A stretch of DNA of 64,000 bases from Erythrobacter sp. (GTDB lineage: Bacteria > Pseudomonadota > Alphaproteobacteria > Sphingomonadales > Sphingomonadaceae), in NCBI GenBank assembly GCA_019739335.1, contig CP073261.1:996818-1060817 (forward strand). The letters are read 5' to 3'. Below the pieces are notes generated by a model. The model was not told the DNA's origin. It did no database searches and saw only the letters and a list, made by a program, of their open reading frames with translations. This document shows, piece by piece, positions 8,475-34,537 of the stretch; position 1 is the first letter of the stretch, and each line of letters begins with the position of its first letter. The position numbers and the translations under genes are program-made.

Positions 8475-8762
8475 TCAGCGCTGGTTCTGGCCGGAGCCGC
8501 CCTGCTGGCCGGACTGGCCGCCCTGCTGTTCCTGCTGGCCGCCGCCCTGCGACTGCCCGGACTGGCCACCCTGGCGCTGGCGATCGGAGTCCTGCTGCTG
8601 CTGCTGCTGCTGGCCCGACTGACCGGCCTGTCCGGCACCCGGCTGGGTGCCCTGCTGGCCGCCCTGCTGGTTACGCTCCTGCTCCATCTGGCGGTTGCGA
8701 TCCTGCTCGCTTCCGCCCTGGCCGCCCTGTTGATTGCGGTTCTGGTCCTGGTTGTGGTCCAT
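8475..8762 (-). CDS. Gln/Gly-rich low-complexity small protein (95 aa)
   Basis: GAGGAG upstream, terminator downstream; repeated QQGGQ/GQSGQ units. Confidence 0.75.
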   Translation of the reverse strand: MDHNQDQNRNQQGGQGGSEQDRNRQMEQERNQQGGQQGTQPGAGQAGQSGQQQQQQQDSDRQRQGGQSGQSQGGGQQEQQGGQSGQQGGSGQNQR

Positions 8763-8926: not shown

Positions 8927-9182
8927 TTAGGCCGCAGCCCCGGCTTTGGCGAGCATCGCCGCGATCTCGTCCCCCAGGGCAAGCCGCTGCTTCTTGAGGC
9001 TTTCCGCATGGGCATCGCTGGTGGGTTCGATTTCGGTCTCGATCCGGTGGATCGCGCGGTTGACCGTGTGATACTCCTCCGCCAGCCGCGCGAAATGCGC
9101 GTCGCTGGTCTTGAGATCGTGGATCAGCGCGGCGCTTTCGGGAAATGCGTCGTGCAATTCGTGCGGGGTGTGCTGGGGACAT
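8927..9182 (-). pseudogene. YdcH/DUF465-family protein with an apparent +1 frameshift just after the start (real or sequencing error)
   Basis: HTPHELHDAFPE...HFARLAEEYHTVNRAIHRIE...LKKQRLALGDEI. The ATG at 9182 with an AAGGA RBS is one base out of frame across a CCCC run; deleting one C gives MSQHTPHEL. Confidence 0.6.
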
Positions 9183-9292
9183 CTGAGGTTCCTTCCGGTG
9201 GTGTGTGGGGAGGAGCCTAGGCGCGATTGCGGGCGGGGGATTTGCTTTGGGTCAAGGATGGGGGAGGGGAAAGGGGTGTTACCGAAGACAGG

Positions 9293-9392
9293 CCCACCCC
9301 TAACCGCTGGGGCTTCGCCCCCTCTTCGAGTCCCCGCCAGCGGGAGGGGGACCTGAACTCCCCTCCCGCTGGCGGGAGGGGCCGGGGGTGGG
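9293..9392. repeat. Left REP-doublet (REPIN-like) arm
   Basis: CCCACCCC...CCCCGCCAGCGGGAGGGG / CCCCTCCCGCTGGCGGGAGGGGCCGGGGGTGGG; internally palindromic. Confidence 0.85.
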
Positions 9393-9437
9393 AACGACAG
9401 CCCTAGCGATAGAAGCACCAAAAACCCCTTGCCAACA

Positions 9438-9452
9438 AAACAAACCAAGAAC
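9438..9452. promoter_or_regulatory. Alphaproteobacterial LexA (SOS) box-like site
   Basis: Minus strand GTTC-TTGGTTT-GTTT (GTTC-N7-GTTY), overlapping a TTGCCA...CATCAT promoter-like region before the DUF559 ATG. Confidence 0.6.
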
Positions 9453-9464
9453 ATCATTCCCAAT

Positions 9465-9893
9465 ATGACCGACTGGGAACCCCGCGACACGCAGCGCGCC
9501 CGCGCCCTGCGCAGCGCCGCCACTCCGGCAGAGCGCGCCCTGTGGCGACACCTCTCCCGCCGCCAGACCGGTGGCGCAAAATTCTCCCGTCAGTTGCCAG
9601 TAGGCCGCTACTACGCCGATTTCCTCTGCCGCGAACTGGCGCTGGTGGTGGAGTGCGACGGCTTCAGCCACGACCTGCGCCCCGAACACGATGCCCACCG
9701 CGACGCCTTCATGCGCCGCGCCGGTTACACCGTGCTGCGCTTCGCCAATGCCGACGTGCTGGGGAATACCGAGGGGGTGGTTTACATGATCGCCGCTGAG
9801 GTGGAGCGGTTGCGCTCGTTGCGAGGTCAGCGCTCCGTTTCAGACGGCTGTCAGGCCCACCCCCAGCCCCTCCCGCCAGCGGGAGGGGAGTAG
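9465..9893 (+). CDS. DUF559 / Vsr-like PD-(D/E)xK endonuclease domain protein
   Basis: TPAERALWRHL, FSRQLPVGRYYADF, VVECDGFSH, RDAFMRRAGYTVLRF; ATG 9465 preferred over TTG 9429. Confidence 0.9.
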   Translation: MTDWEPRDTQRARALRSAATPAERALWRHLSRRQTGGAKFSRQLPVGRYYADFLCRELALVVECDGFSHDLRPEHDAHRDAFMRRAGYTVLRFANADVLGNTEGVVYMIAAEVERLRSLRGQRSVSDGCQAHPQPLPPAGGE

Positions 9894-9961
9894 AACGACA
9901 AGTCCCCCTCCCGCGGGCGGGGACTCGAAGAGGGGGCGGAGCTCCAGCGGTTAAGGGTGGG
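9856..9961. repeat. Right REP-doublet arm, inverted copy of 9293-9392
   Basis: Reverse complement reads CCCACCCTTAACCGCTGGAGCTCCGCCCCCTCTTCGAGTCCCCGCCCGCGGGAGGGGGAC...CTCCCCTCCCGCTGGCGGGAGGGGCTGGGGGTGGG, near-identical to the left arm. Confidence 0.85.
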
Positions 9962-10019
9962 AACGACAACCCTCAGTGGGAACGACCACCCTCACGACAA
10001 CGAACCCAAGAGCCCAACC

Positions 10020-10214
10020 CTACCGCCAAGGCTCACAAGCCACCCCATCCGCATCACCATCCATAGTCACCCGATAGCCCGGCTCGCCTTCATGGATCGG
10101 CGCCCTGCCCAGCGCGCGGACCTCGTCGCAGCCGGAATAGGTGACGCTGCCCTCGATCGCGGCGCGCTCTGCGGGGCTCATCATGGCCAGTTCGACCTTG
10201 CCGGCGGCGATCAA
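10020..10214 (-). CDS. Excalibur calcium-binding domain protein (5' end unclear or truncated)
   Basis: YSGCDEVRALGRAPIHEGEPGYRVTMDGDADGVACE. Confidence 0.75.
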   Translation of the reverse strand: MIAAGKVELAMMSPAERAAIEGSVTYSGCDEVRALGRAPIHEGEPGYRVTMDGDADGVACEPWR

Positions 10215-10271
10215 CGTTCCGGCGAAGGCGATTGCGGCAGATGCTAAGTCAGCAAAAGCGTCAAAATATCA

Positions 10272-10421
10272 TCAGTCTCGATCTGGAGGAGGGAGAATAT
10301 CTCGCGGGTCCGATCGCTTTACATAGCCTTCATCAATCCGCGGTGGCGGAGGTGGAGGTGGTGGCGGGGGAGGAGGAGGAGGAGGAGGAGGCGATGGTGG
10401 TGGTGATTTCGGATCGGCCAT
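10272..10421 (-). CDS. 49-aa poly-proline microprotein (not in ORF track)
   Basis: GGAGG-N7-ATG; MADPKSPPPS-P17-RIDEGYVKRSDPRDILPPPDRD-stop; all four Pro codons used. Confidence 0.6.
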   Translation of the reverse strand: MADPKSPPPSPPPPPPPPPPPPPPPPPRIDEGYVKRSDPRDILPPPDRD

Positions 10422-10953
10422 CAGATTTCCCTCCGTATGCAACGATAGCAACAGCAGTAGTGCTCAAAGAAATGATAAATAGCAGATATGCCGCATTCTG
10501 ACAACGGACTAGCCATTTTGAAAATTTTGGGTCGGAAGTTTTTACGCTCTTTTTTAAATAATATTCCTGCGCAATCTTAGCGCGACGCTTATATGCGATT
10601 CCAGATAAGTACTGCTCCCCCATCGCGGCAATGAGCGTTAACAAGAAACAGATCAGGCCAATGTAAAGAAGATAAGCCTCAGAAAAATCAGGGAATTTCC
10701 CTTCAACGCCGAAAATTAGCCCCGGCACTCCAAGAAGCGAAGCTGAGGTTATTTGGATTACCGTTGAGATTAGACTATCTTCTCTTGCTTCCCTCGCTGT
10801 TTCGTATTGGGAGCAATCCTCGCGCATCCACTGATGACGACGAGCTGCCTCAACGTGAGACAGCGGGTGCTCGCCGCGCTTCTTAGTCGCTAGCTTCCGA
10901 TTTGCTCGACCTTCTGCGAGCCTTTTCCAATTGTCTGAGCGGTACGTGGGCAA
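10333..10953 (-). CDS. Hypothetical membrane protein, about 3 TM (cassette gene 3)
   Basis: Hydrophobic segments ITSASLLGVPGLIFGV, YLLYIGLICFLLTLIAAMG, AYLLFIISLSTTAVAIVAY; low GC; TTG start uncertain. Confidence 0.7.
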   Translation of the reverse strand: MPTYRSDNWKRLAEGRANRKLATKKRGEHPLSHVEAARRHQWMREDCSQYETAREAREDSLISTVIQITSASLLGVPGLIFGVEGKFPDFSEAYLLYIGLICFLLTLIAAMGEQYLSGIAYKRRAKIAQEYYLKKSVKTSDPKFSKWLVRCQNAAYLLFIISLSTTAVAIVAYGGKSDGRSEITTTIASSSSSSSPATTSTSATAD

Positions 10954-10955
10954 AT

Positions 10956-11408
10956 CTAAAAAACCCTATTGTACAACCAGCCCAAGCCGTAGAATAAGCT
11001 ACAAACGAAGATTATTGCCGGAATAATCTGCTCAATTCCGGATGGGCCAAACGTAAATGGCCCCTTAATTCTTTTGTAGCAATCCCACTCGCGGGTGAAC
11101 GGAGCGTAGGCAAGACTTTTCTCGATATCGTGGATAACGTCCCATTTCGCTTTGGCAAGCTGTTGATAAAATCGAACAGTTACAAACCAAATAGAAGATA
11201 TTATGAGAAATGGGATTATTAAGTAGGAGAAGGAAAACCCGCGGTCAGATGCAAAAATAGCGACGCCCGCCGAGATCAATGCAGTAGAGGTAACCGAGAC
11301 GCTCTGGCGTTTCGTTTCGGACGCGCAAGCAGTTTCGACTACGGTAGCATGCAGTGCTAGTAGCTGTTCAATTTCCGCAGTAGAGGTTCCAGATTCCGTC
11401 GATGACAC
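10956..11408 (-). CDS. Small 2-3 TM membrane protein, resembling the RipA/octameric membrane-protein family found next to DUF1863 TIRs
   Basis: KRQSVSVTSTALIS, IWFVTVRFYQQLAKAKWDVIHDIE, PFTREW, IEQIIPAIIF. Family assignment is from recalled pattern only. Confidence 0.65.
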   Translation of the reverse strand: MSSTESGTSTAEIEQLLALHATVVETACASETKRQSVSVTSTALISAGVAIFASDRGFSFSYLIIPFLIISSIWFVTVRFYQQLAKAKWDVIHDIEKSLAYAPFTREWDCYKRIKGPFTFGPSGIEQIIPAIIFVCSLFYGLGWLYNRVF

Positions 11409-11796
11409 TTTGCTTATTCCACCCCACCAGTTTTTTGGCTGCTTGAGCTACTACCGCTGACTTTTTTTCCTGACCCCAAGGGTTAACTGCTAAAATGGGC
11501 TTTGCGAACGAAACAGCCCCTTCAATCTCTTTTTGAATCCAAGTGCTGTAGTTTGCATACATTCCGGTTGGAATCACCACCACATCCGACAGTGTTATCT
11601 TTGTATAGATTGCCCCCCGGAGCTGGGCCTCGCTATTTGCGAAGTGGATCGGATCGCTTTTGGGAACGGAGAAATTTTCAAAGATCAAGGGAACGCCTGA
11701 TACGTTCCAGTTCTCCTGAAATATCCAATTCGCGAGACTGTCGTAATGTCCCGAATATGACCACGAATGGCTGATGAATATCCGGACCTTATGCAT
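11368..11796 (-). CDS. TIR-domain protein, DUF1863/ThsB-like
   Basis: IFISHSW, FENFSVPK, SDVVVIPTGMYANYSTWIQKEI (catalytic Glu), KPILAVNPWG, LVGWN; ATG overlaps the nrdB TGA (GTG at 11799 is the alternative start). Confidence 0.9.
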   Translation of the reverse strand: MHKVRIFISHSWSYSGHYDSLANWIFQENWNVSGVPLIFENFSVPKSDPIHFANSEAQLRGAIYTKITLSDVVVIPTGMYANYSTWIQKEIEGAVSFAKPILAVNPWGQEKKSAVVAQAAKKLVGWNKQSVIDGIWNLYCGN

Positions 11797-12869
11797 CACT
11801 CCGCCGCCACGCTCCCACTCGCCGCACCGCCGGACCGCTCGCCAAACATATCCGGCCCCTCGTCCTCAACCTCGTTCGCCGCGACCGCCTTGGCCTTCTG
11901 GCGCGAGTCGAAGCTGGACCAGACGTCGTTCCAGTTGCCCTTGGTTGCGGCCTTCGAATATTCGGTCGCGCGGGTTTCGAAGAAGTTGGCGTGTTCCACC
12001 CCGTTCAGCAGCGGGGCGAGCCAGGGGAGCGGGTGGTCTTCGACCATGTAGATGCTCGGCAGGCCAAGCTGGCCCAGCCGCCAATCGGCGATGTAGCGGA
12101 TGTAGCGCTTGATTTCCTTCGCCGTCATCCCCGGCACCGGCCCCTGCTCGAAGGCGAGGTCGATGAAGGCATCTTCCAGCCGCACCGTCTTCTGGCACAT
12201 GTCCATGATGTCTTCCTTCACCGCCTTGGTGAGGCAGCCGCGTTCGGCGCAGAAGGCGTGGAACAGCCGGGTGATGCCTTCGCAGTGCAGGCTTTCATCG
12301 CGCACAGACCAGCTGACGATCTGCCCCATGCCCTTCATCTTGTTGAAGCGCGGGAAGTTCATCAGCATGGCGAAGCTGGCGAACAGTTGCAGCCCTTCGG
12401 TAAAGCCGCCGAACATTGCCAGCGTGCGGGCAATGTCCTCGTCGTTATCGACGCCGAACTGCTGCAGGTAATCGTGCTTGTCGCGCATTTCCTGGTATTC
12501 GAGGAACATGCCGTATTCGCTTTCGGGCATGCCGATGGTGTCGAGCAGGTGCGAATAGGCGGCGATGTGCACCGTCTCCATGTTGGAGAAGGCGGCGAGC
12601 ATCATCTTCACCTCGGTCGGCTTGAACACCCGGCCGTATTTCTCGTGGTAGCAATCCTGCACCTCGATATCGGCCTGGGTGAAGAAGCGGAAGATCTGGG
12701 TGAGCAGGTTGCGCTCATGATCGGTGAGGTTCTGCGCCCAGTCGCGGCAATCTTCGCCGAGCGGAACTTCTTCCGGCATCCAGTGGACCTGCTGCTGGCG
12801 CTTCCAGAACTCGTAAGCCCAGGGATATTCAAAGGGCTTGTAGGTCTTGCGGGCTTCGAGCAACGACAT
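11796..12869 (-). CDS. nrdB: Ribonucleoside-diphosphate reductase class Ia beta subunit
   Basis: FTQADIEV, ETVHIAAY, FTEGLQLFASF, RDESLH, VEHANFFE; start at MSLLEARKTYKPF. Confidence 0.97.
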   Translation of the reverse strand: MSLLEARKTYKPFEYPWAYEFWKRQQQVHWMPEEVPLGEDCRDWAQNLTDHERNLLTQIFRFFTQADIEVQDCYHEKYGRVFKPTEVKMMLAAFSNMETVHIAAYSHLLDTIGMPESEYGMFLEYQEMRDKHDYLQQFGVDNDEDIARTLAMFGGFTEGLQLFASFAMLMNFPRFNKMKGMGQIVSWSVRDESLHCEGITRLFHAFCAERGCLTKAVKEDIMDMCQKTVRLEDAFIDLAFEQGPVPGMTAKEIKRYIRYIADWRLGQLGLPSIYMVEDHPLPWLAPLLNGVEHANFFETRATEYSKAATKGNWNDVWSSFDSRQKAKAVAANEVEDEGPDMFGERSGGAASGSVAAE

Positions 12870-33460: not shown

Positions 33461-34537
33461 ATGACGCAGGGAGAAGGACGCGCAAGGCTGGAAAGTGGCG
33501 GCTATCTGCTGTTCCTCGCGCTGGTCACCCTCGCCTTCATCGTCGTCATCTGGCCGTTTGCTTCGCCGCTGCTGTGGGCGACGCTGGCGGCGATCATGTT
33601 CCAGCCGCTCTACCAGTGGTTCCTGCGCAACCTGGGCGGCGGAGGCAATCGCGCGGCCATTGCCACGCTGCTGGTGATTACCGTTGCGGTGATCATCCCC
33701 GCGCTGTTCATCGGCGGAGTGGTGGTGGAGCAGGCGACGGCAGTCGTGCTCGCTTTCCAACGAGGCGATATCGACCTTGCCGGATGGTTTGAGACTATCC
33801 AGTCCGCACTGCCCGCAGCGGTGCGCGATAATCTCGATATGGAAGGTCTGGGCACCGCAGAACTGGTGCAACAACGCGCACAGGATCTCGCGCTCGAAAG
33901 CTCGGGCCTGATCGCGCAACAGGCACTGGCAATCACCGGCAGTGCAGTGGGTTTTGTGCTTTCGTTCGGCGTCGGGCTCTATGTCACCTATTTCCTCCTC
34001 CGCGACGGCAGGCAGATGGGCCAGCGGTTGCTCGCGCACCTACCTCTCGCAGGCGACGTGGCGGAGCGGCTGGCCGAGCGGTTCCTGTCGATCGTCCGTG
34101 CGACGATCAAGGGATCGGTGGTGGTTGGGTTGGTGCAGGGCGCGCTGGGGGCAATCACCTACTGGATCGCGGGAATGCCTTCGGTAGTGCTGCTCGGCTT
34201 GCTGACCGCGCTGTTCTCGCTGCTGCCCGCGGTGGGCCCGGCGATCGTCTGGGCGCCGGTGGCGATCTACCTCCTGGCGACGGGGGAGATCTGGCAGGGC
34301 GTACTGGTGCTTGTCTCCGGTGTAGCGGTGATCGGTATGGTGGACAATGTGCTGCGGCCCATATTGGTCGGACGCGATACCGGCATTCCCGACTGGATGA
34401 TCCTGATTTCCACATTGGGCGGCATCGCGGCGATGGGACTCGCGGGGATCGTGGTCGGGCCGATGATCGCGGGGCTGTTCCTCGCCGGATGGTCGATCCT
34501 CTACGCCTCGCGCAATCCTGACGCGGGGTCAGCCTGA
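33461..34537 (+). CDS. AI-2E family transporter
   Basis: YFLLRDG, VGPAIVW, DNVLRPILVG, GIVVGP. Confidence 0.9.
   Translation: MTQGEGRARLESGGYLLFLALVTLAFIVVIWPFASPLLWATLAAIMFQPLYQWFLRNLGGGGNRAAIATLLVITVAVIIPALFIGGVVVEQATAVVLAFQRGDIDLAGWFETIQSALPAAVRDNLDMEGLGTAELVQQRAQDLALESSGLIAQQALAITGSAVGFVLSFGVGLYVTYFLLRDGRQMGQRLLAHLPLAGDVAERLAERFLSIVRATIKGSVVVGLVQGALGAITYWIAGMPSVVLLGLLTALFSLLPAVGPAIVWAPVAIYLLATGEIWQGVLVLVSGVAVIGMVDNVLRPILVGRDTGIPDWMILISTLGGIAAMGLAGIVVGPMIAGLFLAGWSILYASRNPDAGSA

Follow-up and report, generated by a model that had tools for sequence, protein, structure and literature searches.

A DUF559 nuclease gene framed by dispersed three-block palindromic repeats in Erythrobacter: a possible RAYT/REPIN-like partnership with an unrelated enzyme

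Introduction

Repeats of the BoxC, PIT and triplex-motif type have been known since the 1990s and occur in hundreds of genomes, and we know of no study that has identified their origin, an enzyme behind them or the way in which they spread. Palindromic repeats can also enter genes: the Rickettsia palindromic elements (RPEs) are inserted in frame in essential protein-coding genes, and we know of no candidate enzyme for these either. Here we describe a repeat family from a stretch of Erythrobacter sp. DNA of 64,000 nucleotides (nt), positions 996,818 to 1,060,817 of contig CP073261.1 (assembly GCA_019739335.1; hereafter the window), in which inverted copies of a three-block palindromic unit frame a gene for a DUF559 protein, a Vsr-like PD-(D/E)xK nuclease by its domain. 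Gene and framing units together are called the cassette below. Repeats of the same design frame DUF559 genes in other genomes, gene-less copies are dispersed through the window genome and have moved, and their abundance within the genus tracks the gene. We suggest, tentatively and at a little less than an even chance, that nuclease and repeats form a partnership like that of RAYTs and REPINs built on an unrelated enzyme: the nuclease would recognise the unit that frames its own gene, and events started there would maintain or multiply the gene-less doublets.

In REPIN-RAYT systems, or REPtrons, dispersed palindromes stand as inverted doublets that fold into a long hairpin, and a single-copy gene framed by the same repeats is mostly inherited vertically and patchily lost, the abundance of the repeats following that of the gene (PMC3116915, PMC2817692, PMC5581495). 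The locus studied here resembles them in all these respects. It differs in its enzyme, which is not a Y1 HUH transposase, in the third block of its units, and in the unit ends, which read (A/T)CTCCCC and show no GTAG/CGTC head (PMC3733652).

The unit itself recalls the intrastrand triplex motifs known as TMECO, with the consensus CCCTCNCCCN3-6GGGNGAGGGN3GGGNGAGGG (Holder et al. 2015, PMC4666352). The 2015 survey found no mobility functions near TMECO sites and mentions neither DUF559 nor an endonuclease (PMC4666352). Like BoxC, PIT and TMECO repeats, the units described here have three G/C-rich blocks in a row (one rich in C, one rich in G that is complementary to it, and a further G-rich one), are dispersed and mostly intergenic, and have no associated transposase; unlike them, they are mostly paired as inverted doublets of ~110 nt, some with an extra hairpin. 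An earlier reading of the window from its letters alone (the sequence-only reading) had called the repeats REPIN-like. The parallel in doublets and RAYT logic stands, while the BoxC/PIT/triplex-motif design went unrecognised. Both the repeat design and the logic of the system are known, then, and what is new is their pairing with DUF559: in the literature we found no published link of DUF559 to REP, BoxC, palindromic repeats, REPIN/RAYT or MITEs (miniature inverted-repeat transposable elements).

The cassette and its repeat units

The window gene lies between two repeat units on its left (U1 and U2) and two on its right (U3 and U4; for coordinates, see Table 1). The inner units, U2 and U3, are the two halves of the doublet that is dispersed through the genome; the gene fills the 443-nt "spacer" between these halves, and the U1/U4 pair lies outside. 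The blocks of U2 follow in the order C-rich, G-rich and second G-rich, the last on the gene side. Each arm is a doublet of palindromic units, as the sequence-only reading had proposed: the inner palindromes, CCCCTCCCGC(TG/CA)GCGGGAGGGG at 9360-9381 and 9867-9888, are exact (none expected by chance, 100 shuffles), and the outer ones, at 9333-9349 and 9905-9921, are degenerate. The description of the arms as near-perfect inverted copies holds for the inner unit (91% over 46 nt) but is overstated for the whole arm. An inverted-repeat search paired 9293-9392 with 9862-9961 (77% over 100 nt, ungapped); when gaps are allowed, 9289-9404 aligned with the reverse complement of 9846-9966 has 101 of 123 columns identical (82%), with one 6-nt indel.

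Both outer units share an insertion of ~28 nt (CGCTGGGGCTTCGCCCCCTCTTCGAGT), the inserted hairpin put earlier at ~30 bp, and the variant unit that carries it is found at four further genome sites (2350185, 2511815, 2538492, and 1935431). Since this variant recurs in four other doublets, the outer arms are ordinary members of the repeat family and not unique termini. The 19-nt motif GGGTGGGAACGACANCCCT, present in tandem at the right end of the cassette, recurs in nine of the dispersed doublets as well as at 9386-9404, the inner end of U2. U3 encodes the final ~17 residues and the stop codon of the DUF559 protein; homologs, unlike the window gene, terminate ahead of their repeat. DUF559 is the sole cargo, as had been noted: the arms abut a DUF465 gene and an Excalibur-domain gene, and no transposase gene was seen among the open reading frames (ORFs) adjoining the cassette.

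Inverted arms of ~115 nt could also serve to flip the segment between them, giving phase variation of the nuclease or its neighbours, and the label "DUF559 domain-containing protein" is 14-fold enriched among predicted programmed-inversion targets (PMC9881135). That enrichment may merely reflect flanking inverted repeats, and no recombinase gene is adjacent. A promoter-like site, TTGCCA-17-CATCAT, which is a consensus match only, lies inside the segment together with the gene and ends 8 nt 5′ of the ATG (one site versus 0.1 expected in shuffles); inversion would therefore not switch the gene, and we consider an invertible switch very improbable.

Repeat framing of DUF559 genes

We scored framing as the best inverted repeat spanning each DUF559 gene, with 63 mock positions as a control. 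Among DUF559 genes of the cassette type in relatives, 22 out of 24 are framed (scores 32-155), compared with only one of 17 loci of a core paralog. The remaining 16 core-paralog loci score 28 or less, and all 63 mock positions 26 or less. A strong enrichment of flanking repeats at DUF559 genes, whose lack the sequence-only reading had named among the refuting findings, is thus present in the cassette type. The sequence of the repeat changes with the DUF559 clade (CCCCTCCCGC, CCCTCTCCC, CCCTTCCC, CCTCCCC plus a hairpin, and others), and the three-block design is kept throughout. The third block matches the R block at ≥80% in all 11 DUF559-flanking families examined, always on the gene side. Read as a mirror copy it scores better than as a direct copy in four of the 11 (the margin is two positions in L002 and one in each of L005, L010, and L015) and equally well in the rest, a comparison that is mostly uninformative because runs of G fit both readings.

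The window genome has three DUF559 genes. The second (34033-34484, locus L002) is 40% identical and has inverted repeats of its own, ~50 nt long and of different sequence but of three-block design: ATCCTCCCCCC-TT-GGGGGAGG-hairpin-GGTGGGGG, with an extra hairpin ahead of the third block. Two more doublets of this type lie elsewhere in the genome (2576134/2576224 and 2690486/2690564). The third gene (1570531-1570836, locus L003) is the core paralog, found as a single copy in each of the 24 congeners searched. Its best framing-repeat score, 34, is barely over the mock maximum, and we see no convincing framing repeat there. The core paralog lacks residues E63 and H69 of the window protein and may be catalytically inactive. 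By eye, L003 lies upstream of a putative ABC-ATPase-like gene.

In nine out of 10 orthologous cassettes, the 33-nt unit 5′ of the gene is 88%-97% identical to that of the window, compared with 70%-91% nucleotide identity in the coding sequence, and all differences within the unit are confined to its two loops, leaving the blocks invariant. Invariant columns were also seen in an alignment read without its L032 row, which is on the wrong strand. Invariant blocks beside a diverging coding sequence indicate that the blocks are either under strong selection or continually homogenised.

Repeats and gene might also be associated more passively, if the repeats give rise to variable hot spots between genes or collect in them, or act as terminators, insulators or mRNA stabilisers, and DUF559 was merely acquired or retained there. 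In E. coli, TMECO sites are associated with a higher genetic variability nearby (PMC4666352). The gap between the DUF465 gene and nrdB, in which the cassette lies, is indeed a variable hot spot: it holds a ThsB-TIR/8xMP island here and, in a close relative (G043), two ORFs (L054:2-918) read by eye as a putative MT-A70-like methyltransferase and a putative restriction-enzyme-like protein. Moreover, the orientation of the repeats around the gene differs between species. We nonetheless think a passive association unlikely, since it leaves unexplained the difference in framing among cassette-type genes, core paralogs and mock positions (22/24, 1/17, and 0/63), the clade-specific cognate repeats of one design, two of them in one genome, and the invariant blocks beside a diverging gene.

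The published TMECO consensus has no match in the window genome, where the repeat reads CCCCTCCCGC-NN-GCGGGAGGGG-N4-GGGGTGGG; the window repeat is therefore a relative of BoxC/PIT/TMECO and not a member by that consensus. The consensus is matched, however, by the repeats that frame DUF559 homologs in G035, G030, and G038, three genomes from the same order (loci L010, L011, and L012). In E. coli K-12 the DUF559 protein YcjD (ycjD, b1289) is 41% identical to the window protein. At its 3′ end ycjD overlaps a BoxC-like half (CCCCCTCGCTCTTTCAGGGAGAGGGT), and about 154-170 nt downstream lies a complete consensus TMECO in inverted orientation. In contrast to the window gene, ycjD has no 5′ BoxC unit and instead carries a different 17-nt perfect hairpin at that end. 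A fragment of ~23 nt from the 3′ end of ycjD (GAATATTCTCCAGCACCGTCTCC) is duplicated between the BoxC-like half and the downstream TMECO (L057, NC_000913.3 1351040-1351410).

A genome-wide family of doublets

The sequence-only reading had proposed a genome-wide count of the palindrome. In the complete window genome (3.22 Mb, 63.8% G+C) there are 73 exact copies, and 84 at up to two mismatches, in 46 clusters. Most clusters are doublets (~36) with a spacing of 61-105 nt, typically ~110 nt long and inverted. Some 40 gene-less copies of the framing structure are dispersed through the genome. The layout of a doublet is (A/T)CT-CCCCTCCCGC-NN-GCGGGAGGGG-N4-GGGGTGGGCCTG-[variable 15-30 nt]-CAGGCCCACCCC-N4-CCCCTCCCGC-NN-GCGGGAGGGG-AG, and it folds into a single long hairpin (-42.9 kcal/mol, z = -7.8). 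In 33 forward and 32 reverse units the palindrome is succeeded after 3-6 nt by GGGG(T/A)GGG, a second G-rich block, 65 units of the genome thus fitting CCCTCCCGC-NN-GCGGGAGGG-N3-6-GGGG(T/A)GGG. Because almost all palindromes are trailed by this block, we take the unit to be ~35 nt long and to consist of the C-rich, the G-rich and the second G-rich block.

No Y1/RAYT transposase (PF01797) turned up when the complete genome was searched with a threshold of E ≤ 0.01; run on 14 control genomes, the search was positive in six. The layout had been likened from the start to RAYT/REPtron loci with a different enzyme, and the comparison is apt: a single-copy nuclease gene is framed by a doublet dispersed ~40-fold, and Y1/RAYT is missing. 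We rejected an origin of the doublets as MITEs by internal deletion, since the other doublets hold no gene remnants, their spacers are unrelated and there are only three DUF559 matches genome-wide. A MITE or other element derived from an insertion sequence was rejected as well, as no target-site duplication accompanies the insertions in valS described below and no transposase gene lies beside the cassette. Sub-threshold Rfam matches to miRNA hairpins are put down to chance.

Many doublets end 4-9 nt before an ATG (for example, at genome positions 2740389, 2764508, 2983598, and 873115), which would make the terminal GGGAGGGGAG a candidate ribosome-binding site. The tendency is not significant. 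With GGGAGGGG taken as the Shine-Dalgarno sequence, nine palindromes lie within 15 nt of a start where 2.8 are expected and the control maximum is 10, and we rejected the idea; the test is crude, as the ad hoc gene calls are unreliable (they place 41 of the 73 palindromes "in coding").

Insertion of doublets in valS

Two complete doublets lie in frame in the gene for valyl-tRNA synthetase, valS (1736282-1739545, minus strand), and the reading frame is open across both. The inserted peptides are TPLPLAGGAGGGP...PTPDPSRQREGD (38 residues) and SPLPLAGGAGGGP...PTPNPSRQREGD (32 residues), with the motif …PLPLAGGAGGGP…PTP(D/N)PSRQREGD. Most congeners have neither insertion, and alignments join cleanly across both sites; site 1 is also filled in two other genomes (G021 and G008), with different spacers. 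In-frame doublets that are absent from most relatives indicate that doublets have moved. Further, three relatives whose nrdB is 95%-97% identical (G043, G045, and G013) have no palindromes at all, compared with 73 in the window genome, which fits a lineage-specific expansion of the repeats.

The suggestion of the sequence-only reading that the nuclease spreads or is carried by these repeats is therefore half right, in that gene-less doublets have moved while the gene itself is single-copy and sits at one locus. The valS doublets, which add 32-38 residues, resemble the RPEs in being palindromic repeats inserted in frame; sequence and host group are unrelated. Insertions of this kind mean that the repeats can remodel essential proteins. 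At the same two valS sites, G014 (L070) has short insertions of a different repeat, encoding PSTSSG(R/Q)A; these two positions, both at the surface, would thus seem to be preferred places for palindromic repeats to insert in the genus.

Repeat abundance across the genus

We compared 60 congeners for the number of exact palindromes and the presence of the clade-A gene, the type found in the window (≥53% identity; present in 21 of the 60). All tests use raw counts and ignore kinship. Genomes with the gene have a median of nine palindromes (mean 15, up to 61), and the 39 without it a median of one (mean three; P = 3e-5, Mann-Whitney U test). At least 20 palindromes are found in seven of the 21 genomes with the gene and in only one of the 39 without (P = 0.002), and the difference persists when the four copies of the cassette itself are subtracted (P = 0.02). 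The co-occurrence of palindrome and DUF559 gene that the sequence-only reading suggested examining is thus found as a correlation in abundance. Three genomes (G073, G056, and G058) have few palindromes, which include those framing or adjoining the gene. That such genomes retain the gene-framing copies indicates that the flanking units belong to the cassette.

Synteny and copy number of the nuclease gene

The cassette lies between the DUF465 gene and nrdB, and a clade-A DUF559 gene with the same repeats is found at this locus in at least six genomes. It adjoins DUF465 in G041 and lies 0.2-1.6 kb from nrdB in G018, G014, and G022. The closest cassette (L064), from the metagenome-assembled genome (MAG) G074, is 89% identical and has the same Excalibur neighbour. 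In G014 a second, more divergent DUF559 subclade is present at a distance of 6-7 kb. The locus is not fixed, and one empty-site allele of the kind the sequence-only reading had called for was found in a close relative: in G043 (nrdB 97% identical) the gap between the Excalibur and DUF465 genes is 109 nt, compared with 838 nt in the window, and the site has no DUF559 gene, palindrome or doublet. The boundaries in G043 were set from ORF positions and by eye, sequence divergence preventing an exact definition of the junctions. In several other species the distance from DUF465 to nrdB is 0.3-0.8 kb.

Within any genome the DUF559 gene is single-copy for each type, without near-identical paralogs, although some genomes have up to seven DUF559 genes. 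In the window genome, none of the other doublets holds a gene remnant. On these comparisons the locus is old, inherited vertically in part of the genus and missing elsewhere, and there is no sign of recent movement of the DUF559 gene itself. The view of the gene as a mini mobile element is accordingly weak: a gene present in one copy and kept in synteny across at least six genomes looks more like a RAYT-like resident enzyme than a jumping element.

The same observations bear on a homing-type selfish gene, that is, a free-standing endonuclease gene that inserts into or targets existing doublets, the repeats having spread by some other route. Vsr-like PD-(D/E)xK homing endonucleases exist (I-Bth0305I), the gene sits precisely in a doublet spacer, it is distributed patchily, G043 having a clean empty site, DUF559 genes reach seven per genome, and four genomes have at least eight palindromes but no clade-A gene. 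However, there is one clade-A copy for ~40 possible target doublets, with neither gene remnants in the others nor near-identical paralogs in any genome. The gene keeps the same locus in at least six genomes and has diverged much like neighbouring small genes (62%-71% for DUF559 versus 57%-66% for DUF465). The empty site of G043 has no doublet, so no intact "target" is seen there, and the flanking units persist in genomes that have the gene and hardly any dispersed repeats. We therefore regard homing as unlikely.

The DUF559 protein

The ORF matches the Pfam family DUF559 (PF04480) with E = 6.5e-34 and 116.5 bits (cut-off 20.6) over 106 of the 109 profile positions, and the structural-genomics entry PDB 3HRL, an "endonuclease-like protein", with E = 1e-17. 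In an alignment of the window protein with 11 homologs, D52 and D65 show no variation and E63 and H69 almost none; the conserved acidic residues (the D of ADF, and E-x-D-G) and the H of the predicted active site are intact in the window protein. PADLOC gave no match to it. VsrA of Caulobacter, a DUF559 protein, triggers a DNA-damage response in vivo (PMC12907096), which indicates that the DUF559 fold can be an active nuclease, and from its residues we infer that the window protein is one too.

Vsr, VsrA and 3HRL share their fold and the DUF559 domain with the window protein. A housekeeping role as a very-short-patch mismatch endonuclease paired with a cytosine methyltransferase, the repeats being incidental, would agree with this Vsr-like fold, and VsrA is linked to the methyltransferase ScmA (PMC12907096). 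Vsr and VsrA are tied to cytosine methylation sites, whereas no such context and no methyltransferase partner is seen at the window locus, none being encoded among the scanned ORFs on either side of the gene. The gene is patchy in the genus (21/60), and the repeat framing would be left unexplained. A Vsr-type repair function is therefore hardly probable as an account of the locus.

A possible partnership of nuclease and repeat

In the RAYT/REPIN-like partnership that we tentatively favour, the DUF559 nuclease would recognise the framing unit, folded or in duplex form, by binding it and nicking or cutting. Repair or replication begun at the unit would then copy and homogenise it and occasionally insert gene-less doublets elsewhere. 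DUF559 would stand to these repeats as RAYT does to REPINs, being an enzyme present in one copy and inherited mostly vertically, on which a population of repeats depends. The anatomy of the locus, its recurrence in relatives, the association in abundance, the constraint on the blocks and the mobility of doublets are observed, and the action of the nuclease on the repeat is a prediction.

Several observations weigh against such a partnership. The spacers of the doublets are mutually unrelated, whereas simple copy-and-paste of whole doublets should keep them. Target-site duplications are not visible at the two valS insertions when these are compared with empty alleles. The association of gene and palindromes in raw counts, with kinship ignored, has exceptions in both directions: palindromes occur without the clade-A gene in G051 (29), G006 (17), G021 (10), and G008 (8), and two genomes with the gene (G050 and G060) have no exact palindrome. 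Finally, the gene of L064 (G074:C9:115572-115945) carries an apparent one-base frameshift close to codon 78, yet its genome has 61 palindromes; the frameshift may be an error of the MAG assembly or mark a recent pseudogene.

A broader proposal, which we hold with less confidence still and think somewhat doubtful, is that cassette-type DUF559 proteins are the missing cognate enzymes of BoxC/PIT/triplex-motif repeats in general. Each clade would recognise its own three-block unit, and repair or replication initiated by the nuclease would keep the blocks identical and seed doublets elsewhere, including those in valS. If the partnership exists, it would be a second and mechanistically unrelated route (PD-(D/E)xK, not HUH) to the RAYT/REPIN lifestyle, reaching from Sphingomonadales as far as E. 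coli. With a cognate nuclease, the spread of BoxC/PIT repeats would become directly testable, in E. coli too by way of ycjD. The RAYT/REPIN paradigm of repeats that live long and are inherited vertically would gain a second enzyme class, and a very large family that is still named a "domain of unknown function" would be given a function.

Features of the locus and its neighbourhood

Table 1. Features of the cassette, its flanks, and the valS insertions (window positions, except for valS, which is given in genome positions)
Feature	Position	Strand	Description
DUF465 gene	8927-9181	-	Left flank; left boundary of the insertion relative to G043
U1, outer left unit	9289-9353	.	Complement of third block CCCACCCC, then 28-nt insertion with small hairpin (GGGGCTTCGCCCC), then degenerate palindrome CCCGCCAGCGGGAGGGG
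U2, inner left unit	9357-9402	.	ACT-CCCCTCCCGC-TG-GCGGGAGGGG-CCGG-GGGGTGGG-AACGACAGCC; left half of dispersed doublet
A-rich leader, inside cassette	9403-9464	+	62 nt; promoter-like TTGCCA-17-CATCAT at 9429-9457
DUF559 / Vsr-like PD-(D/E)xK nuclease gene	9465-9893	+	142 aa; domain at residues 8-113
U3, inner right unit	9846-9891	.	Inverted copy of U2; GGCTGTCAGG-CCCACCCC-CAG-CCCCTCCCGC-CA-GCGGGAGGGG-AGT; right half of dispersed doublet
U4, outer right unit	9903-9966	.	Inverted copy of U1; 28-nt insertion as in U1
Two tandem 19-nt copies of GGGTGGGAACGACANCCCT	9955-9992	.	From repeat search
Excalibur-domain gene	10020-10214	-	Right flank; right boundary of the insertion
valS doublets (locus L067)	1736918-1737018 and 1737575-1737695	minus-strand frame	Add 32 and 38 residues

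Two further features of the neighbourhood are outside the cassette. To its left, an ORF at 8475-8762 (minus strand) encodes 95 residues of Gln/Gly-rich, low-complexity sequence with QGGQ repeats, for which there was no Pfam match. To its right is a low-GC island (10230-11800, minus strand; 43%-51% compared with 64%), whose ORFs encode a ThsB-like TIR protein (11368-11799), an 8xMP octameric membrane protein (10956-11408), and a third predicted membrane protein (10333-10953); the island is likely an acquired defence-type module. A tract rich in GGA/GGT triplets lies at its edge (10357-10400), which would translate as poly-Glu from one strand and poly-Pro from the other.

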